Counted from the first letter of the stretch, positions 32,552 to 48,556 are shown. The stretch: DNA of 64,000 nt from Oligoflexia bacterium (GCA_963758495.1 CAVWVI010000003.1:1485440-1549439); one strand, 5' to 3'. Numbers and translations: made by a program. The notes: generated by a model from the letters alone, not told the origin.

Positions 32552-32626
32552 TCAGGAGTAGCTCAGTGGTAGAGCAGCCGGCTGTTAACCGGCTGGTCGG
32601 GGGTTCGAATCCCTCCTCCTGAGCCA
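32552..32626 (+). tRNA. tRNA-Asn (anticodon GUU)
   Basis: The acceptor is TCAGGAG/CTCCTGA followed by G and CCA. The D-arm is GCTC-AGTGGTA-GAGC. The anticodon stem GCCGG/CCGGC carries the loop CTGTTAA. The T-arm is GGGGG-TTCGAAT-CCCTC. Confidence 0.95.
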
Positions 32627-32638
32627 TTATTCAGCACC

Positions 32639-32681
32639 AAATCCCTCGTAGATCATTGAATCTACGGGGGATTTTTATTTT
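32639..32681 (+). terminator. Hairpin plus T-tract immediately after tRNA-Asn
   Basis: AAATCCCTCGTAGAT (32639-32653) pairs with ATCTACGGGGGATTT (32660-32674) with one G-T pair. TTATTTT follows. Confidence 0.6.
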
Positions 32682-32713
32682 GTGGGTGTGGACGTGGTGC
32701 AGAATGTTCGGTC

Positions 32714-33079
32714 GTGATTTCAGGTACCTATACGATTTGGTGCAGAGGCTCGTTTTTTATGAAATGGAATGAATTGGATCTGAAAATCTCGTTGTCTCCA
32801 TCGCAGGCTGTAGCCATGCAGGCGATGATTGAGAAGTTTCTCGCGAGAAAACAGCACTTTTTTTGTGAGCCGGTCCTTGAGAGCAATACGTTAAAAATAA
32901 ATTCTAGCGACTTCATCAACTTCTTGGATCAGGCGGAATTTGGGAATGAGTTTGATCAGTTCAGATTAAAAGCGGCGGCAGTAAAGGCGATCTGCGCAGC
33001 GAAGGTCCGAAAACGGGACCCTCTTGTAGTCCAACATTATCGACGTTGCGAAGAAATCGTGCGTGAATTAAATCGCTGA
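32714..33079 (+). CDS. Hypothetical protein, the first ORF of island A
   Basis: The ORF opens with GTG at 32714, and a more plausible ATG lies at 32759 (MKWNELD). I recognise no motif. Confidence 0.45.
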   Translation: MISGTYTIWCRGSFFMKWNELDLKISLSPSQAVAMQAMIEKFLARKQHFFCEPVLESNTLKINSSDFINFLDQAEFGNEFDQFRLKAAAVKAICAAKVRKRDPLVVQHYRRCEEIVRELNR

Positions 33080-33101
33080 ACAATATAAGGTTTCAACCAA
33101 T

Positions 33102-34048
33102 ATGATTAGCGAACAGAGGTACATTGCTCGGCTACTTTTCAAGAATAAAGTTCTGAAGAGTGATGGCCAGGCTTTCGAGGACCTTTTCACTGCTATCATG
33201 ACCAAGGCCAATCCCAACTTTACTCCGGTGAAACCTCAGGGGTCAATTGGCGATCGAAAAAATGACGGCTGGGATAGAACAAAGGGGATTTATTACCAAG
33301 TTTATGCGCCGGAAAACCTAACTGCAAAACAATCTGATGCGATCAATAAACTTGAAGAAGATTTTAAAGGCCTCAAGGCTGCGTGGAACGATATTGTTCC
33401 GATTCGAGAATTTCATTACGTTTTGAATGACAAGGGCAAGGGTTCCTATCCGACGCTTGAAGTGGCTTTAGCCAACATTAAGCGTGACCATTCATTGGAC
33501 GAAGCACTGCCATTCCTCATCAAGGACCTCGAGGAGGCGGTTTTCTCTCTTAGTGACGACGTAATTTTTGAAATTATTGGTCACGTTCCGTCGCCAACTT
33601 TAATAGAGAACATCCAATTCTCCGCCTTGAACGAGGTTGTTGATCATCTACATAAGCATGGAAAAGGCCTAACCCGAGACGACGTATTAAATGCTCCTGA
33701 TTTTGAAGATAAAATCAGGATAACGGCTTAACTCAGCCCATCGCGGCTATGTTGCAAACAGCAAGTTATCAGGTCGGGGAAATAGAGCGATATTTCGGGA
33801 TGAACAGCCAATACGCAAAGGATGATTTGAAAGCATACTTTGTGGCGTGCTATCTAGCCGCGAAAAATCAATGGAAGGACGAAGGCGAGTCTACAAGAGC
33901 TGATCAGGTATTCTTTTCTGTTCTCGATCAAGCGGTTCCGAAAAACTCTCGTCCTTATCAGGATGCGGCTCTTGTTGTGATGGCCTACTTTTTTGAGGCT
34001 TGCGATATTTTCGAAGCACCTGGGGGCGGCCATGTTGCTACCCACTAA
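33102..34048 (+). CDS. ABC-3C-like effector component: nuclease-like N-domain plus helical C-terminal domain. It has one frame break.
   Basis: The N-terminal GDRKNDGWD...YYQVYAP resembles a PD-(D/E)xK core. The C-terminal piece ends ...AALVVMAYFFEACDIFEAP. The two ORF-track pieces (33102-33731 and 33749-34048) join if the A4 run at 33711-33714 is read as A5, giving FEDKNQDNGLTQPIAAMLQTASYQ. Confidence 0.6.
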
Positions 34049-34280
34049 ACACACAAAACTGGGAGAGTCGATTTTGGGTTTGGGTTCTTTCGTTCTTGGA
34101 GCGCTGACGAAACCAAAAACAATCGATGAGCTATGGGCCGAGTTTCAAGCTGTGAATAACACCGATGCGTTTCCGGCCCATCATTCATTCGACAATTTAG
34201 TTTTAGCCCTAGATTTTTTGTTCATGACAGGTGTGGTCGCTCAAGAGGAGCGAGGAAAGTTCAGACGTGAAGCTCGTTAG
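34032..34280 (+). CDS. ABC-3C-like small middle component (about 83 aa)
   Basis: The ATG at 34032 overlaps the effector stop (34046-34048). It is a small helical protein (MLLPTKHTKLGESILGLGSFVLGALTKPKTIDELW...FDNLVLALDFLFMTGVV) placed between the effector and the ATPase. Confidence 0.55.
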   Translation: MLLPTKHTKLGESILGLGSFVLGALTKPKTIDELWAEFQAVNNTDAFPAHHSFDNLVLALDFLFMTGVVAQEERGKFRREAR

Positions 34281-35988
34281 GCTTTTTGCAAACAAGCCGA
34301 GTTTTCACCCTGTGAAATTCAACCCCACAGGACTGACGCTCATTCTTGGCAAAGAGGCTGGGTCTGGTGAAAAGAAGAAGACCTATAATGGCGTTGGAAA
34401 ATCGTTAATCATACGGCTGGTTGATTTCTGTTTGGGCTGTAAAGCCATAGAGTCCTTTGAAAAGAATCTGCCTGGCTGGGAATTTTCACTGACCTTCGAG
34501 ATAAATGGAACCGAGCATACTGCCTCCCGGGCTACACTTGCTCAGTCGGCAATAGTCCTTGATGACAAAGAAATAAAACTTGATGAATATAAGAAGTTCC
34601 TCGAAGAAAATGTTTTCGATTTAGAGTCCGACTTATCTCTCTCATTTCGTTCTCTTATTTCGCGATTCCTTCGCCCGAGTAAAGCAGCATATACCAAGCC
34701 CGAGATATTTGGTGCTAAGGAACAGCCATATAACTGTCTTCTGAATAACGGATTTTTACTTGGTCTTGACCCGCATCTAATTAAGGCTAAGCGTGACAAA
34801 AAGAAAGAATTGGATGACACGTTTACCAAAAAGCAAAACTTCGATAAGGACCCAATTCTTCGAGAATTCTATTCTGGCACAAAAGATGCCGATTTAGAGC
34901 TTCAGGCATTGGACGAAAAAATTGCCGCATTAGATCGCAACCTCGCAGTTTTTGATGTAGCTGAAGACTACCATCAAATTCGAGCCGAAGCTGATTTGTG
35001 TTCTAAGAAGACTCGCGACCTCGAAAACACAGCGGTCGTTTATCAAAATTCCATTTCTAACATTGAGCAATCACTTAAGACTCGCGCAGATATCCCAAAA
35101 GAACGAGTTATTCGGCTTTACGAGGAAGCGCAATTTCATTTTTCTGATAAAAATCTTCGCTCCCTAGACGAAGTTCTCGAATTCCAAGCCACCCTTCTTG
35201 CTAATCGCAAGAAAAGACTGCTCGAGCAGAAAAAAGCGCTCTCGGAACGTCTATCTAAGGCCGAGCAAGAGAGAAAGGAATTGGGAAAGAAGCTCGATGA
35301 GGCTCTAAAATACCTAAATTCACACAGGGCGCTTGATGATTTTGTAGCAGTGTCGAATCATCGAAACGATTTAAATGCACGAGTAGGAAAAATAAGGGAT
35401 TACCAACAACTCATCAAACAATATGAATTGAGATTAGAAGAAATCAAGATCGACTTAAAGCGCCAAAACATCAAAGCCCAGAGATATCTTGACGAACACC
35501 AAGCGGCAATAGATCAGAACACCAGTCTTTTTCGAGTTCTCGCGAAGCGTTTCTATCAAGAAAAACAAGGTAGAATTTCGATTTCAAACAACGACGGTGA
35601 AAATCAGCAACGCTTTAACATTGAAGCCAAGATCCAAGACGACGCTTCTGATGGAATCAACGAAGTAAAAATTTTCTGTTTTGACCTCACCATCCTCCTT
35701 GCTCGACAGGGACATAAGGTTGACTTTCTATTTCATGACAGCCGACTTTTTGCCGACATTGATTACCGTCAGCGCGAAACCCTTTTTAGGGTGGTACATG
35801 AATATAGCAATGCTAAGGGATTTCAATACATTGCCTCCGTAAATGAAGATCAGATAAATTCCTTCAAACAGAATCTGACCGAGCAGGAATACAAGGAGAT
35901 CATCACCGACAGCGTGACATTGGAACTTACCGATGAATCTCCAAAGAATAAGCTGCTAGGCATCGAGATTGATATGGATTACGAATAA
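34267..35988 (+). CDS. Coiled-coil ABC ATPase (DUF2326-like) of an ABC-3C-like system
   Basis: The N-terminal half-site is LTLILGKEAGSGEKKKTYNGVGKSLIIRLVDFCLG, with the Walker A lysine in GVGKS. About 350 aa of K/E/L/Q-rich predicted coiled coil follow. The C-terminal half-site is ASDGINEVKIFCFDLTILLA...VDFLFHDSRLFADID (signature-like motif plus Walker B and D-loop). A GTG at 34267 overlaps the middle-component stop. The ORF track opens at 34231. Confidence 0.7.
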   Translation: MKLVRLFANKPSFHPVKFNPTGLTLILGKEAGSGEKKKTYNGVGKSLIIRLVDFCLGCKAIESFEKNLPGWEFSLTFEINGTEHTASRATLAQSAIVLDDKEIKLDEYKKFLEENVFDLESDLSLSFRSLISRFLRPSKAAYTKPEIFGAKEQPYNCLLNNGFLLGLDPHLIKAKRDKKKELDDTFTKKQNFDKDPILREFYSGTKDADLELQALDEKIAALDRNLAVFDVAEDYHQIRAEADLCSKKTRDLENTAVVYQNSISNIEQSLKTRADIPKERVIRLYEEAQFHFSDKNLRSLDEVLEFQATLLANRKKRLLEQKKALSERLSKAEQERKELGKKLDEALKYLNSHRALDDFVAVSNHRNDLNARVGKIRDYQQLIKQYELRLEEIKIDLKRQNIKAQRYLDEHQAAIDQNTSLFRVLAKRFYQEKQGRISISNNDGENQQRFNIEAKIQDDASDGINEVKIFCFDLTILLARQGHKVDFLFHDSRLFADIDYRQRETLFRVVHEYSNAKGFQYIASVNEDQINSFKQNLTEQEYKEIITDSVTLELTDESPKNKLLGIEIDMDYE

Positions 35989-35995
35989 GCGTCGA

Positions 35996-36776
35996 TTACT
36001 CAATCAACGAAATCCCCTCCCGCAACTGTTCTTCACTCTTCAAGTCCTTCTGAATTTGCTCCCATAGGTGGATGTACCTTTTAGTGGTGCTGATATCCGC
36101 ATGACCGAGCACAAGTGAGCACAGAAAAATATTTCCCATGACCATTCCCGTAAATTCTGTGGCAAACGTATGTCGGCAACAGTGTGGCGTATAAGGCCCG
36201 ATCTTATGACGACTACAGATCGACCTGAGATAATTACCAAAGACGTTTTTGTTCAAACCGTCAAAGAGCAGGTAGTTCTTTGGATCAGCTCCGTAAGGTT
36301 GTTTCTTGAAAAGCTCCTTCTGCTGAAGCCAGAGCTCGGCCAGAATGTTGAACGTTTCTTTATTGAGAATTGGGATCGTCCGTCCATGCTGGGACGAGAT
36401 AACCCTTTTTCCTTTGAGCGGTTTCCGAGCGACGATTCCATCGGCGCTTCTGAGCGCAAACCTGCATCCGGGTTGGCTTTCCAAAACAAGATAGCCAAAA
36501 TACTGGATCCCCTCTTTCTTGAGTTGGGCAGCCAGGCTTTTATTGGAGATCTCACCCTTGAACAGGTCATCCAATGAAAGACCAAGCCCTTCATTGATCC
36601 TCAGACCGGTATCAACCAGAACTTTGAAGAAGTAGGCCGCTAACTTGGATTGCTCATGTAGGGCGGGATAGATGATTTCCTTCTCCGATGGTGAAATCAC
36701 GGACTCCGCGTCTTTCTGGTTTTCAAGGTGTCTTGCGAATTGTGGGCATTGATCGAGTCGCTCGATCTTGTTCTTA
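35996..36776 (-). CDS. Tyrosine recombinase (short or N-terminally truncated), abutting the IS21 end
   Basis: Catalytic residues are R in VDTGLRINEGLGL, HxxR in HCCRHTFAT, and H/Y in LGHADISTTKRYIH. The apparent TTG start codon of the ORF-track model (36779-36781) lies inside the IS terminal repeat. Confidence 0.75.
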
Positions 36777-36930
36777 TGCAAAATTTCATTATAGGGATCA
36801 CCCCGATTTCAAGTTAGGGATCACCTCAATTTCATCGTAGGGATCACCCTGATTTCACTATTGGGATCACCCCTCGGAGCGCCAAAACAGGCGGGTGTAT
36901 AGTCCTCTTCAATTAAAAAGGAGAGAACTG

Positions 36931-38442
36931 ATGGCCCGGAAAGGATTAACTGTGGCGCGTGTAGAGGATATTAAAAGACTCATTAGAGAGGGACAATCAA
37001 ACAAGTTTATAGCGCGAGCTCTGAAGTGTCGGAGGACACTAGTTGCAGATCTTAGAACCCAAATGGATCAACCTAATGAAGAATTAGCGAGTCCAGCTAA
37101 AAGCCCACTTTGGATTGAACTTGTAGACTGGATAGAGATAGCTAAAGAAATTTCCCTAGGATTTGAACTCCTAAGAATATGGGAGGAGAAGGCAAGCCCA
37201 GTCACGAGTTATTCGAATTTCTGGAAGACTCTGCAGCGTAAGTTTCCCCACCTACTCAAAGCAACAGTGACCTTAAGAGACTTCGCTCCCGGAAGTCAAT
37301 GTGAGGTGGACTATGCCGGAGATAAGATTGAATGGATCAATTCTCAAGGTGAGATTCATTATGCGCATATTTTTATCGGGGCACTGGCTTTCAGTCAGTA
37401 TTTGTTTGCCTGGGCCTCTGAAGATGAAAAGAGTCGAAACTGGCTATTGGCCCATCAAAAAATGTACACTCACTTCCAGGGTGTCCCAGCCGTTACAGTC
37501 TGTGATTGCCTTAAGAACGGTGTAATTAAAGCCCACCGATATGATCCAGATCTGAATCCAGCTTATACTGAATTGGCAACTCATTACGGAACAGCAATTG
37601 TTCCAGCAAGGCCCCGACGCCCAAAGGACAAGCCTATCGTCGAAGGAGCTGTGAAATTGATCATGAGACTATTCAGGTGGAACTATAGACGACACACGTT
37701 CTTCTCTCTTGATGAAATTAACAGAGCACTTTCTGAAGTGGTGAAGCAGATCAATGAAAGAAGTCATACACGATTTAAAACTTCTCGATTGGAGCGCTGG
37801 CAGCTTCTTGAAAAGAAGGCTCTGAAGGCTCTCCCTGATTCTCCATTTGAATCCATTGAATGGACAAAAGCAAGAGTCCACCCTGATTCCACCATTTCTG
37901 TGGATCAAGTATTTTACTCAGTGCCATACCTTTATCGGGGAAAAGAGGTACGAGTTAAGTTAACTCAGAATCAGGTTGAGATTTTTTATGAAAATCAAAG
38001 ACTAGCCATCCACGCCAGACACCGAAGACATGCCTCAAGAGTGATTCAAAATGATCATTTACCTCCTAATTCACAAGCATATCGTGAAGCTACGCCACAG
38101 AATCTATTATCACAAGCAAGATTTATTCACTCAGATCTAAGGTCTTTAGTGGATGACTTATTTAATGAAAATGCACTTGGGAATATTAGAAGAGTGCAGG
38201 GACTTCTGAGGGTTGCTCAGGAGGAGATCAAAAGCTCCGGAAGGGCATTGGCAGAACCTCGAATTATAAATGCCATTCAGCAGATGAGACGCTTTGAAAA
38301 AATCCGAGTGACCTACTTCCGAGAATGTCTCAATGGTCTTAAGAAACACCAATTTTCTCAGGCTCAGGATTTTAATATCCAGAGAATGCCTGGAAACCCC
38401 ATGCTTCGCCAGGCAAATGCGAAGTCTGAGGTAGCAACCTAA
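36931..38442 (+). CDS. istA: IS21-family transposase IstA
   Basis: It has an N-terminal HTH (VEDIKRLIREGQSNKFIARAL) and a DDE region (CEVDYAGDKI, VTVCDCLKNGV, DKPIVEGAVK). The ORF track opens at GTG 36895. Confidence 0.9.
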   Translation: MARKGLTVARVEDIKRLIREGQSNKFIARALKCRRTLVADLRTQMDQPNEELASPAKSPLWIELVDWIEIAKEISLGFELLRIWEEKASPVTSYSNFWKTLQRKFPHLLKATVTLRDFAPGSQCEVDYAGDKIEWINSQGEIHYAHIFIGALAFSQYLFAWASEDEKSRNWLLAHQKMYTHFQGVPAVTVCDCLKNGVIKAHRYDPDLNPAYTELATHYGTAIVPARPRRPKDKPIVEGAVKLIMRLFRWNYRRHTFFSLDEINRALSEVVKQINERSHTRFKTSRLERWQLLEKKALKALPDSPFESIEWTKARVHPDSTISVDQVFYSVPYLYRGKEVRVKLTQNQVEIFYENQRLAIHARHRRHASRVIQNDHLPPNSQAYREATPQNLLSQARFIHSDLRSLVDDLFNENALGNIRRVQGLLRVAQEEIKSSGRALAEPRIINAIQQMRRFEKIRVTYFRECLNGLKKHQFSQAQDFNIQRMPGNPMLRQANAKSEVAT

Positions 38443-38473
38443 TATTGCCGCAATCAATAAAATAAGGAGAATA

Positions 38474-39238
38474 ATGATTATGAGTCCAACTCAAATCAGA
38501 CAACTATTGTCTGAGCTCAGGTTAAATGGAATTGCAGACACACTCGAGAAAACCCTAACAGATGGCACTCAGGCTGGGTGGAGTTACTTAGAGTTTTTAA
38601 ATGTCTTACTTCAAGCAGAGTCAGACCATCGGAACAAAAAGAAAATAGAGAGCCGAATCAAGAATTCCAAGTTGAAGCGATCCGCATCCTTCGAAGACTT
38701 TGACTTCACAGCCAAAAGAAGTATTACGAAAACGCAGGTAAAAGAACTACATTCTATGAAATGGCTCGAAGATGGCCGACCACTGCTCCTCATCGGGCAA
38801 ACTGGCGTGGGTAAAACATATCTATCCCAAGCGATTGGACTCAGAGCATGTCAGTTGGGAAAAACGGTGATCTTCCTGTCGGCAAGCACATTCCTAGAGC
38901 AACAAATCCTTGCGAGAAGTACCCATAGCTATCTCAAATTCAAAGAAAAGCTCACAAAGCCCGACTTGCTCATTATTGACGATTTTGGACTTAGAAAATT
39001 TAATCCATTGGAGGCTGAAGACTTGAGAGAGATCTTAGAAGAGAGATCCTATGGGAAATCCACTCTTGTCACTACTCAGTTACCCCTGGAACACTGGGCT
39101 GAGGTTCTTCCAGATCCAGTTCTCTCAGAAGCAATCATTGACCGAATTGAGGGGATGGCTGTTCAGATAAAAATTACTGGCGAGAGTTATAGACGAATAA
39201 AAGCAAAAAAACTTGATCAACTTAAAGAGACGCAGTAA
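38474..39238 (+). CDS. istB: IS21-family helper ATPase IstB
   Basis: Walker A is LLIGQTGVGKTYL and Walker B is LLIIDDFG. Confidence 0.92.
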   Translation: MIMSPTQIRQLLSELRLNGIADTLEKTLTDGTQAGWSYLEFLNVLLQAESDHRNKKKIESRIKNSKLKRSASFEDFDFTAKRSITKTQVKELHSMKWLEDGRPLLLIGQTGVGKTYLSQAIGLRACQLGKTVIFLSASTFLEQQILARSTHSYLKFKEKLTKPDLLIIDDFGLRKFNPLEAEDLREILEERSYGKSTLVTTQLPLEHWAEVLPDPVLSEAIIDRIEGMAVQIKITGESYRRIKAKKLDQLKETQ

Positions 39239-39332
39239 CAATCGTCGCTTCGCTCCGAGGGGTGATCCCTACGATGAAATTGAGGTGATCCCTAACTTGA
39301 AATCGGGGTGCTCCCATCTCTGAAATTGCGCA

Positions 39333-41956
39333 CTTTTCAGTAAGGTAAGTAGAAAGGTCAGCTATAATCTCCTGCTTGTGCCCTGCAAAGATTCCGAGAA
39401 AGTAAGTCAGAGTTCTCATGCCCAATGAAGTGCATCGTTTCGTTAGTTCTAGCTTTCCTTCTCTATTTAATGATCCTTGGTATGTGCGCAGAATCTGGCC
39501 TGCAACCTGAATTGTTTTAAGCGCCTTGTTTACTTCACTCAGTGTATCGACCTTGGATTGCTGATCTGAACTAAAGATTTCGTCGATCCGATCAGAGCTC
39601 TCTGCCACGGTAGCGCGGTTTTCTTTTGGGCTCTCAATTCCTAATTGTAGTTTTGGACCTTTACCTCCTGCCAGATCATTGGCGAACTGAGTATCCTTGT
39701 CGAGATCGCAGGGATTTAAGTTTGAAAAAAGACCGTCACAAGTTTTCTTTATTTCGGATATCAGGAAATCGCTTTGGGAAAAGTAGCTCACAAAAATAAT
39801 AGTATTGGCATAGTCCTCTCTGTAAAGGTTTTCACACATTCCACTTATAGTTACTTTAGTTTCTTCTTTCTCAATGTGGTCTGCGAGATATCTGCCCAAA
39901 AAGTATGTATAATAGTATCTGTATTTAAATTTATAGTTGCCGTGCACGCTTTCCAATATGAAACAATTTAATAGATAACCTTTAAGCTCACTGTATGGAA
40001 CTGAAAGAGCATATATTCGACAATGATTGTTATGAAACTGTTCAAGGTCGTCATCGGACAGTGAAATTACGTTACTATTATGTAAATTAAATGCTAAATT
40101 ACAAAGAAATCCTCTCAGAATCCCAAGATCTATAGACGTTGTGTTCCCCTTAACTAATGACTCTGTCACCAAGAAGTCAAAAAGGTGACCATAAGAACCT
40201 GATGCGGTTGTATGCTGCTTGCTAGTCTCTACCTGTTGAAGAAGAGCCAAGATGTAAATCGGATAAGATGGCACCAAGTCTTTTCCAATTATCATAGTAA
40301 TTATTCGATTAATTTGATCTGAGTGGCTTGCAAACTCGCTTGGAGCATATGTGTCCTCTCTGCCCAAAAGTAACCATCGTTCAATCAGCTCTAGCCGCTG
40401 TTTGTGTCCGAATGGAAGAATTTCAAGTTGGCTAAAGTCCGCAAGGAAGGTTTTTGTTCTTCCTAAGGCAGCCAATTCCTGAATCTTTAGAGAGGTGTCT
40501 CCAAGAAGAATAACTTTTCCAAACAGTCCAGAAAGAACCGTTAGTAATTTTTCTATCCCATCCGGATTTAGGAACAACTTATCAAAGTTATCGACAATTA
40601 TAACTTTATTACTCTGATTGAGTTGAACGTAGGTGTTCCATTCAGTATCGAGATAGAAGTTAGAGAAAGTTTGCTCTGAAAGTCTCAAGAAGGAATCTCT
40701 GGTTAGATGAGAATTGGTGAGTTTTTGACCATCTACTATGAGAGGAACAAATTCCTTTTCACGCAGGACAGAAAAGCTTCGTTTGCCAAGACAAGTCTTG
40801 CCGGAGTCAAGATCTCCAAAAATAATTATTTTTTCGTGCTCGATTAGGAATTTATGGAAATTTTCAGGACGAAGGCGTTCTTCTTCGGTATTTTTTGATA
40901 GATGTTGAGTTAGGATCTTCAGTGTTGGAAGGATGAAAATATCATTTAGATAAATCGTACTTTTTGCGGGGTGACTGAAATTCGCTCCGAGGTCATTGAT
41001 ATAGCGGATAGAGGCGTCAGTTAATTGGAAGGTGTTCTTTAGTAGATGTGAGTTTCGATTGAATGGAAGTTCCGTGGGAGTGTACCCCTCGATGGGAACA
41101 TATTCAGTTTTTTTCCATTTAAAACGGAATCTCTTCTGCGTTTTATTGCTGAGATCAACGAGAATAGCGGCGAATTCACTGCTATTTGGATTAGAGGTTT
41201 CATTGAGAACGCCCCCTTCAAAATAATGGTTTTCAATATCTTCACTTTTTTTGAGATAGATTGAGGGATTGTGTTCGTGGCCTGTCACTATAACGTCTGA
41301 GGTTTGTTCCACTATCTGTTTAAAGTGGGGCATAGTTTCCGGACTAAACCATGGATAAGGATGGTGGAAAGCGGTAATCACCAATCGGAAGAGATCGATT
41401 TTAGTTCATTTGTCGGAAATGCAAGGGTACCTGGCGATTCGTCTAATTGAGACATCCAGGCCGAATTAATGCAGCGAATCGCTACCTTTTTCTCTTCAAA
41501 TATTTGTTCTTCAATCCAATGCAATCTATTTTGAAACACATGGCCATTCATTTCTTCGTAAAATGAGAAAAAGTTAGTCTGTGGTTCTAAGCATGAACCA
41601 AGGTATTGAGGCTTGATTGAGCTTGGTGACTTGAGGTGGCCTAAGATCAGATCTCTAACGTCATCTTGCTGAAAGTGACAATCATGATTTCCCGGAACAA
41701 CAAAAAAAGAAATGGATTTTTTTGTGGCTTCTTGGAGTGCATCACGAATCCGAGATAATAAGTCAGCACAGACCTTATACTCTTCAGCTTTTCCAGAAAA
41801 AGCTAGAACGCCGCTTACAATTAGAAGAATTCCTGAAATACTTGTGTCGGAGCAAATCGGCAGGATCGCTGAAATGAGTTTATCTACTTTTTGGAAAATC
41901 GGTTCACGTTCGTTTTTTATATGAATGTCACTGAGATGTAATATCAATAGTTGCAT
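39333..41956 (-). pseudogene. Metallophosphoesterase-P-loop NTPase fusion protein. It has one frame break, and its 3' end is interrupted by IS21 copy 1.
   Basis: Calcineurin-like motifs are HLSDIH, GNHD, AFHHP and GHEH, split over the two ORF-track pieces 41378-41956 and 39222-41384. The pieces join if the T4 run at 41399-41402 is read as T5. Walker A is IIIFGDLDSGKTCLGK and a Walker B-like motif is KVIIVDNFD. A long helical C-region follows. The last 36 codons of the ORF-track model are IS-derived. Confidence 0.7.
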
Positions 41957-42036
41957 GAGTGTCCTCTAGATGTCGTCCCCAAGTAGGGCAGAGCCATGCT
42001 ACCTCGTTTTGGAGAACGTCCAATAGGCCTATAGGC

Positions 42037-42056
42037 TATAGGTTGATATAGGTTGA
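42037..42056. promoter_or_regulatory. Tandem 10-bp direct repeat TATAGGTTGA x2, within four ATAGG copies (42023-42052), in a divergent promoter region
   Basis: The repeat was read directly. It lies about 100 bp upstream of abiEi, between that gene and the oppositely oriented NTPase gene. Confidence 0.4.
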
Positions 42057-42159
42057 GGGTTTTGGCAATCCAGTTCAATTCCCGAAAGTGCTTACATTTC
42101 ATAGATCTAAATATAAACCCCATATATACTAAGGGGTTTATTGACGTGCTGCAAAGACT

Positions 42160-42813
42160 ATGAGATTATATCCCTTAATGAGTAAGGGCTATAAAGAACA
42201 AAAACATCAAAATCCGCGGGATAACGAGCGACGTCTTTTTGAGATTGCTGATTCTCTACAAGGTTTTTTTACCGCCAAACAGGCGGTAGCTGCTGGTTAT
42301 AGCGAAAAGAATCACGCATTCCACGTTCACGCCGGAAATTGGGTTCGGGAACTCCACGGAGTCTATCGTCTTCGAAGTTATCCACAGAGCACTGAGTCGG
42401 ATCTAGTGCTTTGGTCCCTTTGGTCAAGAGGTAAGGATGGTATTCCCCATGGGATTTATTCCCATGAAACGGTGCTCAGTCACTACGATCTTTCCGATAT
42501 CAATCCTGCCCGTTTGCATATGACAGTACCTACTCGTTTTAAAAGAATGGTAAAACCTCCTGAAAATCTCGTTCTTTATAAGAGTGACCTTCCAAAGGAA
42601 GACATCCGCCAAATGCATGGCTATCAAATGACTACAGTGAAGCGAGCTCTCGAAGATATGTTTCAAGCAGGAACTTATCCAAAAGATCTCATTGAAAGTG
42701 CAGTCGCAGAAGCTCTAAAGTCAGGACACCTTACAGTTTCCGAACTTGAAAACTCTCAAGTTCTAAAGCCCTTTCAAAAATTTCTTCAAACAAGAAAGCA
42801 ACTGGCATCATGA
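42160..42813 (+). CDS. abiEi: AbiEi-family type IV antitoxin / transcriptional regulator
   Basis: FFTAKQAVAAGYSEKNHAFHVHAGNWVRELHGVYRL and SHETVLSHYDLSDINPARLHMTVP match the AbiEi N-terminal pattern. It overlaps the downstream gene by 4 nt. Confidence 0.8.
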   Translation: MRLYPLMSKGYKEQKHQNPRDNERRLFEIADSLQGFFTAKQAVAAGYSEKNHAFHVHAGNWVRELHGVYRLRSYPQSTESDLVLWSLWSRGKDGIPHGIYSHETVLSHYDLSDINPARLHMTVPTRFKRMVKPPENLVLYKSDLPKEDIRQMHGYQMTTVKRALEDMFQAGTYPKDLIESAVAEALKSGHLTVSELENSQVLKPFQKFLQTRKQLAS

Positions 42814-43703
42814 ATTCTGAGGAAAAGAGCTATATGTCGGCACGATCCTTTTCGCAGGCCTTAGCTGAAAAGCTGCGTGCCCAAGTGAAAAATCAACCTG
42901 GTTATGACATTGTACGGATTCGTCGCCAAGTAGCATTCGATCGGCTTTTAGCTAGACTCTTTGTTGAAGAGCCCTCTCCCTGGATTCTCAAAGGCGGATA
43001 TGCGATGGAACTTAGATCTAATCGAGCGAGAGCTACTCGTGATATCGATTTATCGCTCCCCGATGGAAAATTCTTAGGTTTAAAGGACGAAGAGGTTTTA
43101 GGAATCGCACTTCAGCGAGAGATACAGAATCAAGCCTCAAAGGAACTTGGGGATTTTTTCCATTTCATTATCAGTGAGCCTATTTTGGATTTAGAAGCAG
43201 CTCCTTATGGTGGTGCTCGTTTCCATATTGAAGCACGTCTTGACGAAAGAACATTTGCGAAGTTTCATCTGGATGTCGGAGTCGGCGATGCTATTTTAAA
43301 GCCTCTTGATGTATTACAAAGTCATGATTGGCTAGCTTTTGCGGGTATCCCCGCCAGTTCCTATCCAACTCTATCGAAAGAACAGCAATTTGCAGAGAAG
43401 GTACATGCTTATACCCTTCCAAGGGATGAGAATCGAAGTAACTCAAGGGTAAAAGATCTGATTGATCTATTGCTTTTAATTCAGAGCAATGAACTTGATC
43501 GATCACGTCTTAGAGCTGCGCTTGAGGCAACTTTTATGAGGCGGGAGACTCACTCTCTTCCAGCGGAATTTCCCGATCCCCCTTTACACTGGGAAAAGCC
43601 ATTTCAACATCTCGCTAAGGAAGTTGGGTTAGATGAGAATTTGGCTGCAGGTGTTAACATTGTAAGACGCTTTTTTCATGAGACGACTTATGAATCAAAA
43701 TGA
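42810..43703 (+). CDS. abiEii: AbiEii/AbiGii-family nucleotidyltransferase toxin (DUF1814)
   Basis: Motifs WILKGGYAMELRSNRARATRDIDLSL and FHLDVGVGDA are present. Confidence 0.82.
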   Translation: MNSEEKSYMSARSFSQALAEKLRAQVKNQPGYDIVRIRRQVAFDRLLARLFVEEPSPWILKGGYAMELRSNRARATRDIDLSLPDGKFLGLKDEEVLGIALQREIQNQASKELGDFFHFIISEPILDLEAAPYGGARFHIEARLDERTFAKFHLDVGVGDAILKPLDVLQSHDWLAFAGIPASSYPTLSKEQQFAEKVHAYTLPRDENRSNSRVKDLIDLLLLIQSNELDRSRLRAALEATFMRRETHSLPAEFPDPPLHWEKPFQHLAKEVGLDENLAAGVNIVRRFFHETTYESK

Positions 43704-43809
43704 GCTTTGGAAATACGATTTTTCACGGAAACTTCAAGTAGGCGGTCGGCCCGGCTGGTTGCATCATTCTGCTCGGGTCAGTCATATTATCTGGCCTAGG
43801 GAAGTTTAA

Positions 43810-43959
43810 TTGAGGTCAAGAATGACAGATTTTTTTCGCTATTTAGCGGTGAATCCAGGACAAACATTTGTTTTTCTCGGCACTATGTTAACTGTCTTTG
43901 CTGGATTTTATGTGACCTATTCTCAAAATAGAGAACAAATCAAGCAGAAAAATGAGATC
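43810..43959 (+). pseudogene. Small membrane-protein ORF truncated by IS21 copy 2
   Basis: The ORF-track model 43810-44013 runs into the IS terminal repeat at 43960. It has one hydrophobic segment (FVFLGTMLTVFAGFYV). Confidence 0.3.
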
Positions 43960-44094
43960 TGGCTAGTGCCAATGAATCTTGCCGGTCCAGTGCCAATTAA
44001 ATTTGCCGGTTAACTGAAATAGTTAACAGTACCTGGAGGTTTTGCCTCCAGTCGTCTCTCGGGTAGAACTCGCTCTATTGGAGTTAACCGGAGT

Positions 44095-45604
44095 ATGATT
44101 TTAATGACTGAGTTCAAAAGGATTATTCAGCTAAGGAATGATGGCAAAACCCAAAAAGAAATTGGAATTGAACTAGGGTTGTCCGAAAGGACTGTGAGAA
44201 ATTATCTTAAAAGTGGGTCAGTTCCGTCTTATACACGGACTGTATCTACCCGCCCTGATCCCCTGTCTGAAGCTCATCTCCAAATTGCACATGAGATGCT
44301 TCGCCAATACCCAAAAACCCAAGTAAAGAGCATTTTGTCACGACTGAGAAGGGAAGGTTACAAGGGGAGTTATCGGACCCTTCTGAGACGGTTGGAGAGT
44401 ATAACCAGGGTATCGGATCCGGCGCCAGTATTCTTTCAACGCGAACATTTCCCAGGTGATGTTATGGAGGGAGACTTTACCGAGCTTTCTGGGATTTCAA
44501 TCGGTGGCGAAATTTTGAAGATCCAACTCTGGGTAGTTCGGCTTATTTTCAGTGGCAGAATTTCAGCTACGGCATTTTTTAATACTACTTGGGAGTGCTT
44601 TCTAGAAGGCAGTGTGCAGGCTTTTAATTCTTTTGGTGGCATAGCCCAGCGCTATCGCCTCGATAATTTATTATGTGGAGCTCCACATAATTAAGGACTC
44701 AACATAAAATTTAAGTCCTGTGGTAAAACTCTTGGGTCGTGGGGAGCGAAAAATTACGGCCCGCTTTGCTCAATTTCAAAATCATTATGGGTTTAAAGCC
44801 GATTTCTGCAACCCAGCGTCAGGATGGGAGAAGGGATCGATTGAAAGTACAGTTGGGCATCTTAAAATACGAATCCGTGAAGTCATTGGCCTCGGGAATC
44901 TTCACTTCCGAGACCTAGCGTCATTCCAGCAATTGGTGAACAAAGTTGTAAATGAACAGAATGCGGAAGCTGCAGTGGAAGAGAAGTTTAACCAGGAACC
45001 CTTGATACTCCTTCCTCGAGAGCCATTCCCTGCCTTTGAAGAAGTCGTAGTAAATATTGATAAGTATTCGACTTTCAGTCCTCTGAAGAATGGCCATCGG
45101 TATTCTGCTCCTAGCCATTTAAGTGGTCTTTCCCTCGAAGCCCGGATCTATGCTTCGAGGATTGATCTCATTTATGAATCGAAAGTAGTTGCCACCCATT
45201 GCAGGCTATGGGGTAAATCTAACCAGACTAAGATCGAAGTTGTCCATATTATCCGCGAACTCTGTAAGAAACCTGGAGTCGTCCTGGAGTGGAAACACCG
45301 CCATGTTCTCTTCTCTCATCCCATTTGGAATCGCTTTTACGAAAGATTGAAAGTCCAGCCTGCCAACGGTCCGACAGCCTTAAAGGAATACTTAAACTGT
45401 TTAAAATATATGGCTGAATATGGCCGTGAAAACGTCACTGCGGCTATGGAGCTCTGCCTCGAGGGCAGCAACGAATTATCATTACTAAAACTAAAGGAGG
45501 TCCTTACCAATGAACCTGTAGCTGACATTCTCAACATAAAACCAGCTCGTAGAGATCTTAATCAATACGACGAATTATTTAGCCTCCAAAGAAAGGAAAA
45601 TTAA
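44095..45604 (+). pseudogene. istA: IS21-family transposase IstA, disrupted by a 43-bp insertion
   Basis: Pieces 44095-44694 and 44720-45604 are out of frame. Removing 44671-44713 gives ...RYRLDNL-SPVVKLLGRGERK..., which matches the IstA DNLxxAV region. EKGSIESTVG supplies the DDE glutamate. Confidence 0.8.
44671..44690. repeat. 20-bp perfect palindrome TTATGTGGAGCTCCACATAA inside the 43-bp insert
   Basis: Read directly. The insert is bounded by AATTTA copies at 44665-44670 and 44708-44713. Confidence 0.9.
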
Positions 45605-45606
45605 TA

Positions 45607-46386
45607 ATGGCCACCAGCCAAAATATGCAAATACACCTTGAGTTGAATTTAAAAACACTAAAACTTCCCAGTATCCTCAGATCCTATCAAAAGGTGAGCG
45701 AAGCCGCCGCTGAAGAGGGTCTCACGTGTGAGCAATACCTGTATCGCCTAACCGGCATCGAAGTTGAGAAGCGAAAGGAGAAAAAAATCAATGCACTCAT
45801 ACAACATGCAAAATTCCCCCTTAAGAAGCTACTGAGTGATTTTAAGTTTGAAGAAACACCCACTATCAGCAGGCAAACCTTTATTGAATTGGCTGAAGGG
45901 CATTTCTTAGCTGACGCCAAAAATGTCCTACTTTATGGAGCACCAGGAGCAGGCAAAAGCCATTTGGCCATGGGGTTGGCCAGGGAGCTGTGTCTCAGAG
46001 AAAAAAAAGTTGTCTTTTTTACTGCCTGCGATCTTACTCAACGGCTAATTAAAGAAAAAAACAATCTAAGACTCTCTGAGTTTTTGAAAAAGCTGAACCG
46101 ATATGACTTGATCTGCATTGATGAACTTGGCTTTATCCCATTTGAAAGAACAGAAGCTGATCTCCTCTTCCAGTGCTTCAGTGCCTGCTACGAAAGGACT
46201 TCAATTCTTATTACGACAAATTTGGTTTTTAGTGAATGGGACCAAATATTCAAAGATACAAAAACCACTACTGCAGCAATTGATCGCCTGATTCATCACG
46301 CTTATTTATTTGATATCAGTAGCGAGGAAAGCTTCAGGAAGAAAGAAGCCAGAAAAAACATGGACCAAAAACAACAAAAATGTTAG
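45607..46386 (+). CDS. istB: IS21-family helper ATPase IstB
   Basis: Walker A is LLYGAPGAGKSHLA and Walker B is LICIDELGF. Confidence 0.9.
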   Translation: MATSQNMQIHLELNLKTLKLPSILRSYQKVSEAAAEEGLTCEQYLYRLTGIEVEKRKEKKINALIQHAKFPLKKLLSDFKFEETPTISRQTFIELAEGHFLADAKNVLLYGAPGAGKSHLAMGLARELCLREKKVVFFTACDLTQRLIKEKNNLRLSEFLKKLNRYDLICIDELGFIPFERTEADLLFQCFSACYERTSILITTNLVFSEWDQIFKDTKTTTAAIDRLIHHAYLFDISSEESFRKKEARKNMDQKQQKC

Positions 46387-46465
46387 CCGGAAACCGGCAA
46401 ATTTAGTTGTCACTCACCGGCAATTTTTATTGGCACTCTCCAATAAATAATAAGTAGAGTTCGTC

Positions 46466-46879
46466 CTACGCAACTTCACCGAGTTCATGTGAGTAAGTCA
46501 GCTTTGGCATCTCAATAACAATCCGACGATAATTAAAAGCAAGCTTCGGCGCTTTAGAACCCTTGGCATCACCGCTCTCCTCCAATGTAATAAATCCCAT
46601 AGCTTCCAGTGCAGTGCAGTCTCGCTGCACATTACCGAAGTCACGATCTAAGAGTTGAGCAAGCTGATAAATAGAAGTAGGCTTCTGGCTAATGATCGCT
46701 GCGAGAATGACTATCTTCTGTTCAGTCATGAATTTTTGATAATCCACCACTGAGTTGAACAAGATCGTATCCTTTTTCCCAATGCTAGGTTTTTGAGCTT
46801 TCAATGCAGCTTGTGTCCGAGCTTTGAAATCATCCCATTTCTCAAAACGAATATAGAGTGATTTATCTTTATTTAGCAT
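46466..46879 (-). CDS. HTH DNA-binding protein (HVO_A0114-like), a putative antitoxin/regulator
   Basis: The winged-helix region is KIVILAAIISQKPTSIYQLAQLLDRDFGNVQRDCTALEAMGFITLEE. The tail is KAPKLAFNYRRIVIEMP. It overlaps the upstream gene by 11 nt. Confidence 0.65.
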   Translation of the reverse strand: MLNKDKSLYIRFEKWDDFKARTQAALKAQKPSIGKKDTILFNSVVDYQKFMTEQKIVILAAIISQKPTSIYQLAQLLDRDFGNVQRDCTALEAMGFITLEESGDAKGSKAPKLAFNYRRIVIEMPKLTYSHELGEVA

Positions 46880-47180
46880 CTTTCAAAATCCTTTCTACTT
46901 CCTGGTAGAATAGAGCCAGTGCCGCATTGTGGTCAGTTACTGGAAGCTCTACACGAACTTCTTTGTCTTCCGGTAACTCAGTGTGCATATGGAAACCAAA
47001 AGGTTCATGATTATCCACTAGTAGCCTCGGAAAGTTACCTTCCACGTCTATCAAGACAAACTTAGCTTTAATTCCGTGAGGGAACTTCTCGCTTACCGGA
47101 ACTTCGAGTGCATACAGGACAACCCTGTAACGGTTGTTGATGGCAAATTTCTCGTCGAGGATAATCCGCGTTGCACTCAC
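46869..47180 (-). CDS. DUF6516/TumE-like putative toxin
   Basis: The 103-aa ORF contains YRVVLYALEVPVSEKFPHGIKAKFVL and LLVDNHEPFGFHMHTE. This resembles the xDNxH...HxH core of that family as I remember it. Confidence 0.55.
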   Translation of the reverse strand: MSATRIILDEKFAINNRYRVVLYALEVPVSEKFPHGIKAKFVLIDVEGNFPRLLVDNHEPFGFHMHTELPEDKEVRVELPVTDHNAALALFYQEVERILKDAK

Positions 47181-47394
47181 CTCTAAATCATAGCTTAAAA
47201 CATATGTTCAGTCACCATATATCTAACAAGGATCATTTGTCCGCTATATCGGTCGAGATGGGGCGCATTTGGGGCGTGTAACTGTGTACATGTGTAGCGC
47301 ATCGTATCGGAGTGTATCGTTCGAGCGGTTTCTAAGTATCTAATATTTAAAAATATTCCAAATCTATCAAGAAGTTAGAAACTGGATCAAAATC

Positions 47395-47411
47395 TCCCTC
47401 CTCCTGAGCCA
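47395..47411 (+). repeat. Direct repeat of the tRNA-Asn 3' end, the att-like junction between islands A and B
   Basis: TCCCTCCTCCTGAGCCA is identical to 32610-32626 and 50010-50026. Including the following AATTA, it is identical over 22 nt to 50010-50031. Confidence 0.9.
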
Positions 47412-47584
47412 ATTAAATCGAAACCCTCGGAAAACTTGAATGTTTTCCGGGGGTTTCGTGTTCTAGGCTTCTCGAAATTTCATTTTTGCGGGCCTTTGCG
47501 GGCCATGATCGGGTCGATCATTTGCCTCGAAAAATTTACTGCTTCAAAATGGACGACAACTTCTCGTCCATTTTTTTTTGGGTT

Positions 47585-48556
47585 TCAGCAATCTGCTGAT
47601 CCCGGTTGTACATTATCAACATTACCGTCAGCAAAAACCGGCTGCCCCCCAACATCTTTAGCTACATCTCTAGTTAATTTGGTTAATCTAGGTTGAGTAA
47701 CTTTAGCTTGCTCATACACATGGTTCAATAACTCCTTCCTTAGCTCTCCCCCATGCTCTTTGTCTTGAGATTTTGCTATAATTTCCGGCGAGATTACCTT
47801 CCCTTGTGAATCACGAACCTCTTGATTTACAGTTTTTTTATCTACTTGAAATGGGTTTTTATGATTTACACCACCTGTTGTTGCACTGGAATTTAATCCG
47901 TCTTTTACTGATTTGCCAGTGGTGTGAAATTCTTGCATTCTTTGAAGATTTCTTTGGGCTTTGCCTGGATCATTGAAGGTTCCATAAATGGGATTGGAAT
48001 TAATTTCACCATTTGATTTTGTTCTATTATGTATATTTTGAAATTTACTATCATTCCGAAGTTCGCGAACCTCGCTTATAGTGCCATTTGGACTTTTTAA
48101 TTGAGCAGAGACTGTCGAATTCTCATTTAGGCCCGTTTCAGTGTGGCGATATGAATGCTTATTGTCGATCGAGTTGTTCATCTCATTTTGAAAAAAGTGG
48201 AGTTCCTTTTCAGATCCAAACTTATGAGTCACTGACACAGAATTACCATTATGAAGCTGCATATCAATTTTAGTGGAAACACTTCCTGTCGGAGTCGCAG
48301 GATCAGGATGTACGATCATTTTTTTTATAGGTTGTTTTTCTAAACTTTCTTTTCTTTTAATGGAGGAAGTCGTTTTCAATAGGGGTAATCTTTTTCTTGT
48401 TTCGTTAACCCTTGAAGACCTTGGGCCGGTTTTAGGTTGTCCAGGCTGGTCAGATGAATTTGTTGCAAACACCTGTTTAATTACCAGGTCATTACGAGAA
48501 ACATAGACAGCGACGAAAAGTAAAAAAAAGCGAATTAATTTTTTGCAGAGTAACAT
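47585..48556 (-). CDS. Secreted low-complexity protein (N/S/K/T-rich), function unknown
   Basis: It has a signal-like N-terminus (LIRFFLLFVAVYVS). I recognise no domain motif. Confidence 0.55.
   Translation of the reverse strand: MLLCKKLIRFFLLFVAVYVSRNDLVIKQVFATNSSDQPGQPKTGPRSSRVNETRKRLPLLKTTSSIKRKESLEKQPIKKMIVHPDPATPTGSVSTKIDMQLHNGNSVSVTHKFGSEKELHFFQNEMNNSIDNKHSYRHTETGLNENSTVSAQLKSPNGTISEVRELRNDSKFQNIHNRTKSNGEINSNPIYGTFNDPGKAQRNLQRMQEFHTTGKSVKDGLNSSATTGGVNHKNPFQVDKKTVNQEVRDSQGKVISPEIIAKSQDKEHGGELRKELLNHVYEQAKVTQPRLTKLTRDVAKDVGGQPVFADGNVDNVQPGSADC

Follow-up and report, generated by a model that had tools for sequence, protein, structure and literature searches.

The ABC-three-component (ABC-3C) class of systems was reportedly described by Krishnan, Burroughs, Iyer and Aravind in 2020. 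They are now regarded as belonging to the Lamassu superfamily (PMC10586767; bioRxiv 2025.06.23.660979), for which the trigger and the mode of activation were published in 2024-2025. In Lamassu, a monomer of LmuA, a Cap4-type nuclease, is sequestered by two copies of LmuB and one of LmuC; Lamassu senses DNA ends, and the released LmuA tetramerises to become an active nuclease (bioRxiv 2025.03.14.643221; 2025.06.23.660979; PMC12663957; PMC11707656). In vivo, palindromic viral DNA is one trigger, and loss-of-function (suppressor) mutations in DdmA, which are mostly frameshift or nonsense changes, cluster in its C-terminal domain (CTD) (PMC11707656). Some described systems of the Lamassu family carry Mrr or PD-(D/E)xK effectors, and several protect by abortive infection; DdmABC acts against plasmids too (bioRxiv 2022.05.11.491447). 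Effectors are also shared between Lamassu and the Avs family (bioRxiv 2025.04.02.646746). Here we analyse a three-gene locus in a 64,000-nt stretch of DNA from an Oligoflexia bacterium (GCA_963758495.1 CAVWVI010000003.1:1485440-1549439; hereafter, the window), which we assign with high confidence, on the basis of sequence, to the CTD10/MC6/DUF2326 (YydD-type) subtype of ABC-3C systems within the broad Lamassu superfamily. Our analysis follows up an annotation made from the raw sequence (the original prediction), which recognised the ABC-3C class correctly and knew of no published mechanism or trigger for it, a view made out of date by the Lamassu structures, trigger and effector tetramerisation now in the literature (PMC11707656; bioRxiv 2025.03.14.643221; PMC12663957).

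The CTD10/MC6/DUF2326 operon

The locus consists of three overlapping genes on the same strand (33102-35988, +), called as open reading frames (ORFs) in the window. Its features are as follows.

33102-33731, + strand: gene 1, 5' fragment; a 209-aa ORF encoding the effector N-domain (~aa 1-165), of restriction endonuclease (REase) fold, and the first part of CTD10
33718-33727, + strand: frameshift site GGATAACGGC; a 1-nt deletion, with AA at 33722-33723 against AAA in the orthologue
33749-34048, + strand: gene 1, 3' fragment; a 99-aa ORF in the -1 frame encoding the remainder of CTD10, with the C-terminal end YFFEACDIFEAP
34032-34280, + strand: gene 2, ABC-3C middle component MC6; 82 aa, Pfam PF20293
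34267-35988, + strand: gene 3, DUF2326/YydD-type SMC/Rad50-like ABC ATPase; 573 aa, Pfam PF10088
34387-34404, + strand: Walker A motif NGVGKS, aa 41-46 of gene 3
35647-35664, + strand: signature-like motif SDGINE, from aa 461 of gene 3
35725-35742, + strand: Walker B motif FLFHDS, aa 487-492 of gene 3

Gene 2 starts with an ATG at 34032 and overlaps the stop codon of gene 1 (TAA, 34046-34048) by 17 nt, and gene 3 starts with a GTG at 34267 and overlaps the stop codon of gene 2 (TAG, 34278-34280) by 14 nt, exactly as had been read from the raw sequence. The N-termini of homologues support both starts, as do the gene calls of a syntenic locus, L009, which has the identical 14-nt overlap. A scan for promoters and terminators gave no useful signal (3 sites resembling promoters, where 5.7 would be expected); the site at 33077-33106 overlaps the start codon of gene 1.

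The products of all three genes scored above their Pfam gathering thresholds, so the trio is not a chance resemblance. Gene 3 matched DUF2326 (PF10088) with an E-value of 5.3e-37 (127 bits, cutoff 28.7) and gene 2 matched MC6 (PF20293) with an E-value of 2.7e-18 (66.1 bits, cutoff 27.2). The 3' fragment of gene 1 alone matched positions 45-134 of the 134-position CTD10 profile (PF20275; E 2.9e-8, 34.8 bits, cutoff 28.1), and after repair of the reading frame the match covered the whole profile (1-134, E 4.5e-13, 50.3 bits). Among the PADLOC models, PDC-M68B matched gene 3 over its full length (E 7.5e-99) and PDC-M68A matched the effector CTD, encoded by the 3' fragment (E 1.4e-8); PDC-M68 is one of 145 candidate systems (PDCs) whose genes lie within BREX, DISARM or type I restriction-modification (RM) systems. 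An NCBIfam scan of the products returned no meaningful match.

The gene order is conserved as well. We fetched ten related loci, from Sulfurimonas, Bacillota, Clostridia and metagenomic lineages (a single-sequence scan of the genome collection returned eight loci), and in all ten the effector, MC6 and ATPase genes follow one another in that order, overlapping or abutting, with the MC6 gene between the other two. The CTD10 match was present in 115 of 115 effector homologues. RefSeq already uses ABC-3C names for such trios, including one annotated on a Vibrio alginolyticus plasmid, where it adjoins an AAA-ATPase and UvrD-helicase pair that we take as Gabija-like. Altogether, the Pfam signatures, gene order, overlaps and protein sizes (~310, 82 and 573 aa) are those of the CTD10/MC6/DUF2326 ABC-3C subtype, and the original identification thus passes the profile searches proposed with it for the three proteins; the three genes are also conserved jointly.

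An AlphaFold2 (AF2) model of the ATPase (predicted local distance difference test score, pLDDT, 88.6) contains two head halves linked by helices formed by aa 154-429. This coiled-coil insert of ~275 aa is 36% charged, and ~415 aa lie between the Walker A and signature motifs, values that replace the separation of ~350 aa originally estimated for the two half-sites. No CxxC motif, as expected of a zinc hook, is present at the coiled-coil apex, near aa 272-293 of the model. In Foldseek comparisons, the best match was YydD (9a6c_A, E 2.4e-26, template modelling (TM) score 0.63), followed by LmuB structures (9uxh_F, E 1.4e-12; 9hqx_f, E 2.3e-12; and 9ux7; all ~1e-12 to 1e-11) and then by SMC and Rad50 heads. 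The motif FLFHDS in a protein of 573 aa also fits the definition of short Lamassu, in which LmuB is ~600 aa long and has a Walker B motif of the form hhhhD[Q/S/T/E] (bioRxiv 2025.04.02.646746).

Gene 1 had been described as a single gene encoding an N-domain and a helical C-domain. Both domains are there, as are all the motifs reported for gene 1 (GDRKNDG at aa 50, YYQVYAPE at aa 64 and YFFEACDIFEAP at aa 296) and for gene 3 (NGVGKS, SDG and FLFHDS); the gene itself is not one ORF but the two listed above, and the break between them had merely been alluded to. The residues that are invariant in the family (G50, D51, N54, D55, G56, Q66, P70, K83, N109 and D110) are all retained, and K53, K44, E71 and K111 are near-invariant. 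The invariant polar residues (D51, N54, D55, Q66, K83, N109 and D110) argue for the N-domain being an enzyme. An AF2 model of P0001, a 78%-identical orthologue (pLDDT 85.9), has an alpha-beta-beta-beta-alpha-beta N-domain (H23-36, E56-58, E63-68, H74-95, E103-108, H117-129 and E134-138) and an all-helical C-domain, and the topology of the N-domain core is that of the PD-(D/E)xK, or restriction endonuclease, fold. LmuA chains were the best Foldseek matches to this model in the PDB (9nxx_B, probability 0.98, E 3.9e-3, TM 0.30), followed by EcoT38I and FokI.

The N-domain occurs well beyond this operon type. When 1.84 billion representatives were searched, relatives turned up in 1021 representative clusters, mostly of the N-domain plus CTD10 architecture, and the same domain (aa 1-165) is also N-terminal to nSTAND3, NACHT, and NB-ARC plus TPR proteins, in an Avs-like layout. 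Because it heads both CTD10 effectors and Avs-like STAND NTPases, the N-domain behaves as a portable immune effector module.

The frameshift in gene 1

Alignment of gene 1 with its 78%-identical orthologue at L009 places ATAAACGGC in the orthologue opposite ATAACGGC in the window, which thus lacks one A at 33722-33723. Homologues with an unbroken gene have 305-315 aa and read DFxEKIxFNGLS through the break site, and insertion of one A into the window sequence yields a 315-aa protein in which every invariant residue is kept. As the sequence stands, the frameshift leads to a premature TAA that ends the 209-aa ORF, leaving ~207 native residues and placing the break at the start of CTD10. Gene 1 is thus split, and the MC6 and ATPase genes are intact. 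Since an effector truncated at the start of CTD10 should be able neither to dock nor to oligomerise, the module is most likely inactive, and it is probably a recently inactivated remnant.

We consider it likely that the lesion is real and gene 1 a genuine pseudogene, because the affected run of A is only two to three nucleotides long, the ORFs of the core region are contiguous and the damage is concentrated in the island. Within the core region (1-32500), each of the 27 ORFs that reach 150 aa is contiguous, and the five comparable ones are close in length to their counterparts near L009, so the general error rate is low. Within the island that carries the module, by contrast, an integrase gene and an NTPase gene are truncated by an IS21-family insertion sequence (IS) and the istA gene of a second IS21 copy is split. 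The lesion also appears to be recent, because the proportions of nonsynonymous and synonymous differences (pN/pS) from L009 in the segment after the frameshift (0.16/0.89) resemble those in the segment before it (0.11/0.80) and in the ATPase gene (0.12/0.86).

Two other readings of the break were considered and rejected. A programmed frameshift or a naturally split effector was discarded because GGATAACGG contains no slippery heptamer and the ATG at 33749 is not preceded by a ribosome-binding site (RBS; Shine-Dalgarno sequence). Read-through at an earlier A4 run would give KNQDNG, a poorer fit to the conserved KIxFNG than the KIRING obtained by repairing the indel.

The tRNA-Asn island and its cargo

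The original prediction had placed the module in a tRNA-borne island beside AbiE, an NTPase gene and toxin-antitoxin (TA)-like pairs, and this setting was borne out by the AbiEi/AbiEii genes, an nSTAND NTPase gene, TA-like pairs and repeats of the tRNA-Asn 3' end. The features that delimit the island, and the small ORF next to its tRNA end, are the following.

32552-32626, + strand: tRNA-Asn (GTT), found by ARAGORN and Rfam; its 3' 17-mer TCCCTCCTCCTGAGCCA at 32610-32626 acts as attL
32759-33079, + strand: upstream small ORF, 106 aa from the ATG at 32759 (most likely start)
47395-47411, + strand: second exact copy of the tRNA-Asn 3' 17-mer, in direct orientation, found by repeat search and regular-expression scan; distal end of the module-bearing island
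50010-50026: third exact copy of the tRNA-Asn 3' 17-mer

A terminator-like hairpin, different in each case, follows all three copies of the 17-mer, and the arrangement indicates two tandem integrated elements (32627-47411 and 47412-50026) that result from successive integrations. An Rfam scan of the window detected two tRNAs and nothing else. The cargo of the first element is, in order, the trio, the integrase fragment, an IS21 element, the nSTAND4 NTPase gene, AbiEi/AbiEii, the second IS21 copy and a pair that includes an HVO_A0114-family gene. At L009, the trio and an integrase gene occupy the same tRNA-Asn site. The module is an old resident that has been inherited vertically at this site, because its divergence from L009 equals that of the flanking core genes and its GC content does not differ from that of the core. 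Elsewhere, homologues were found on 48 plasmids, and a search of the phage collection found no ATPase homologue in any phage record.

The 121-aa ORF directly upstream of gene 1 (32714-33079) had been put forward as a possible fourth component of the module. With its most likely start the ORF encodes 106 aa, and it has no family match in Pfam, PADLOC or NCBIfam. It is absent from nine of the ten trio loci; L009 alone has it before the trio, in a truncated version of 65 aa. Of its nine homologues (63-77% identity), one lies after tRNA-Asn (L012) and one, seen on three contigs (L013-L015), lies between a remnant of the tRNA-Asn 3' end and genes for HAD and DLH hydrolases. We therefore rejected a role as fourth component, given the absence from nine of ten trio loci and the position beside tRNA-Asn or its remnant with unrelated cargo; the ORF is part of the island's tRNA-proximal end, not of the module. 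The truncation at L009 is due to a 110-nt deletion corresponding to 32925-33034 of the window, and an extra 143-aa ORF (L009 7333-7764) lies there between tRNA-Asn and the small ORF. The ORF is one of a narrow family of 104-116 aa with no known domain (window 32759-33079, L012 7001-7321, L013 7001-7318) whose members stand directly after tRNA-Asn or its remnant plus a hairpin and before different cargo, and which may represent an island-end gene.

Several further genes of the region were noted. The first IS21-family element (36777-39332; istA 36895-38442, istB 38474-39238) has 73-nt terminal inverted repeats composed of 23-bp sub-repeats. The integrase ORF (35996-36781, -) starts inside its left repeat, with homology to L009 stopping at 36640, and the NTPase ORF (39222-41384, -) ends inside its right repeat; because their ORF ends fall inside the IS21 terminal repeats, both genes are truncated. 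The region 39222-41956 (-) comprises the nSTAND_NTPase4 gene (720 aa) and, overlapping it by 7 nt, an upstream 192-aa Metallophos ORF that matches only positions 3-72 of the 191-position profile; a stretch containing GHEH opens the 720-aa ORF, and the two ORFs look like one gene split by a frameshift. AbiEi (217 aa) and AbiEii (297 aa) are intact (42160-43703, 4-nt overlap) and lie in the same island. The second IS21 copy (43989-46414) has 23-nt inverted repeats, an istA split into ORFs of 199 aa (44095-44694) and 294 aa (44720-45604), and an intact istB (45607-46386). Just inside the distal att repeat (46466-47180, -) lies a possible TA-like pair of overlapping ORFs, one encoding an HVO_A0114-family protein of 137 aa and the other a 103-aa product without matches. 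In the second element (47412-50026) we noted an ORF of 323 aa that matches no family and a gene with an FGE-sulfatase domain. Outside the repeats, a HipB/HipA toxin-antitoxin pair (55406-56985) is flanked by paralogous CheB-CheR-PAS-histidine kinase-receiver fusions (51159-54947, 1262 aa; 57262-61617, 1451 aa); at L013, HipB/HipA genes are likewise found shortly downstream of tRNA-Asn remnants.

Proposed mechanism and relation to known systems

The best overall explanation of these data, and in our judgement a probable one, is that the locus is a Lamassu-superfamily ABC-3C abortive-infection module whose effector has been inactivated by a 1-nt deletion in a decaying tRNA-Asn island. For the intact form, a Lamassu-like mechanism seems more likely than not. 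By analogy, the coiled-coil ATPase, in two copies, and MC6 would hold the CTD10 of the effector and thereby keep it as an inactive monomer; the ATPase heads would sense structures of foreign DNA, such as free ends or hairpins of replicating phage or plasmid DNA; an ATP-dependent change would release the effector; and the effector would then oligomerise via its C-terminal domain, allowing the REase-fold N-domain to cut DNA, such that the infected cell dies or stops growing.

Several observations weigh against this explanation. Single-sequence and profile searches of PDB sequences with the ATPase, the effector and MC6 found no LmuB, LmuA or LmuC, nor any Rad50 or SMC chain, so it is fold comparison, and not sequence search, that ties the ATPase and the effector to Lamassu. 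The PADLOC LmuA and LmuB models gave marginal matches, confined to the N-domain of the effector (E 1.7e-4) and to aa 41-114 of the ATPase (E 7.5e-4), and Pfam Cap4_nuclease touched only one of 115 members of the effector family (E 0.002). The canonical D...(D/E/Q)xK motif is lacking in the effector, where the lysine position is occupied by Y68 (Q66-x-Y68), or by F in some homologues. MC6 had no match in PADLOC at E <=1, and its profile had none in the PDB at E <=10. It is therefore not recognisable as an LmuC homologue, the equivalence of the two being one of position; with 82 aa, compared with more than 149 aa for the DNA-binding LmuC of V. cholerae (bioRxiv 2025.04.02.646746), it may not do LmuC's job. 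The frameshift could be an assembly error, and the literature we searched contained no experimental test of the CTD10/MC6/DUF2326 subtype.

An assembly or consensus error at 33722-33723 would mean that the module is intact and active, as would a reversible on/off switch at that position. In keeping with this idea, the invariant residues of gene 1 are kept on both sides of the break, the segment after it retains 73% identity to the orthologue and has a pN far lower than its pS, and MC6 and the ATPase are intact. A run of two to three A, however, is a poor site for either consensus error or phase variation; that, the contiguity of the core ORFs, the damage to the integrase, NTPase and istA genes of the same island, and the lack of a slippery heptamer or of an RBS before the second ORF make an active module unlikely. 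It is also conceivable that the trio does not act primarily against phages and serves instead in competition between mobile elements, as an addiction module of the island, or, through the ATPase and MC6, in DNA maintenance independent of the effector. Retention under purifying selection at the same tRNA-Asn site since the split from the L009 lineage would fit such a role, as would the activity of the related DdmABC on plasmids (bioRxiv 2022.05.11.491447), the presence of homologues on 48 plasmids and in no phage record, and the survival of intact ATPase and MC6 genes after loss of the effector. We nonetheless regard this as very improbable: the effector N-domain is common to Avs-like STAND NTPases, in a domain layout that immune proteins typically have; the genes from which PADLOC built PDC-M68 lay inside BREX, DISARM or type I RM systems; nearby genes belong to defence or TA systems (AbiE and the nSTAND NTPase here, the Gabija-like pair on the Vibrio plasmid); and we found no evidence of a short-lived component of the toxin-antitoxin type.

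The remaining alternatives concern how the intact system would work. The effector N-domain may not be a DNA nuclease but may instead cleave RNA, hydrolyse nucleotides or bind without catalysis, by means of D51, N54, D55, Q66, E71, K83, N109, D110 and K111. The absent lysine, the lack of a Pfam nuclease match above threshold, and the low TM scores to nucleases (0.26-0.30) are what this possibility has in its favour. The predicted core, however, has the topology of the REase fold; LmuA, followed by EcoT38I and FokI, comes closest to the model in structure; and, weak as they are, the matches to PADLOC LmuA and Pfam Cap4_nuclease also point to a nuclease. In the PD-(D/E)xK superfamily, relocation of the catalytic lysine is a familiar phenomenon, and the invariant K83 or the near-invariant K53, K44 or K111 could possibly play that part. 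On balance, a function other than DNA cleavage seems doubtful, and of the PD-(D/E)xK-like core originally proposed, the fold stands and the canonical lysine does not. There is a similarly small chance that the whole CTD10/MC6/DUF2326 branch is mechanistically distinct from the solved Lamassu systems, with another trigger or another way of activating the effector, because an 82-aa MC6 would be too small for the DNA-binding role of LmuC and because the REase-fold domain, which has neither the canonical lysine nor a Pfam model, is common to Avs-like STAND NTPases.

The locus is one more decayed example of a widespread and already catalogued defence class, ordinary and probably inactive, and it opens no long-standing question. 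The module was kept under purifying selection at the tRNA-Asn site and then probably lost its effector when the reading frame broke where the CTD begins. Together with the clustering of suppressor mutations in the CTD of DdmA, the position of this lesion fits the idea that suicide systems carry a cost. The L009 orthologue would offer an intact entry point for studying the CTD10/MC6/DUF2326 branch.

Of the systems described to date, the type II "short" Lamassu systems LmuA-LmuC-LmuB/DdmABC of V. cholerae and S. enterica (PDB 9hqx, 9uxh, 9nxx) have the same three-gene layout as the locus in the window: an effector with a CTD, a small middle protein and an SMC/Rad50-like ATPase of ~600 aa. The likeness extends to a Walker B motif of the form hhhhD[S/T/Q/E], the lack of a zinc hook, and an effector with an REase-fold N-domain and a helical-bundle CTD, and LmuB and LmuA are the nearest experimentally solved folds for the ATPase and the effector, respectively. 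The locus differs from short Lamassu in its MC6 of only 82 aa, in its nuclease motif QxY and in having no significant profile match to the solved LmuA, LmuB or LmuC. DdmA and DdmB contain CTD7 and MC3 (PMC11707656), where the window has CTD10 and MC6, so the two are sibling subtypes. With PADLOC PDC-M68 the locus shares the CTD of the effector but not its N-domain, which is unlike the N-termini of the two PDC-M68A models; those models match the CTD alone.

The closest structural match of the ATPase is YydD of B. subtilis, the namesake of DUF2326, in an integrative model of YydB-YydD derived from cross-linking mass spectrometry and deep learning (PDB 9a6c). In that model the product of the upstream gene contacts the ATPase. 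Sequence identity between YydD and the ATPase of the window is only 18%, and YydB (9a6c_B) aligns weakly with the effector model (Foldseek E 1.7). Finally, Avs-like antiviral STAND NTPases have the same N-terminal domain as the effector described here. Sensor and scaffold are of different kinds, a STAND NTPase in the Avs-like proteins and an SMC-like ABC ATPase with MC6 in the window.

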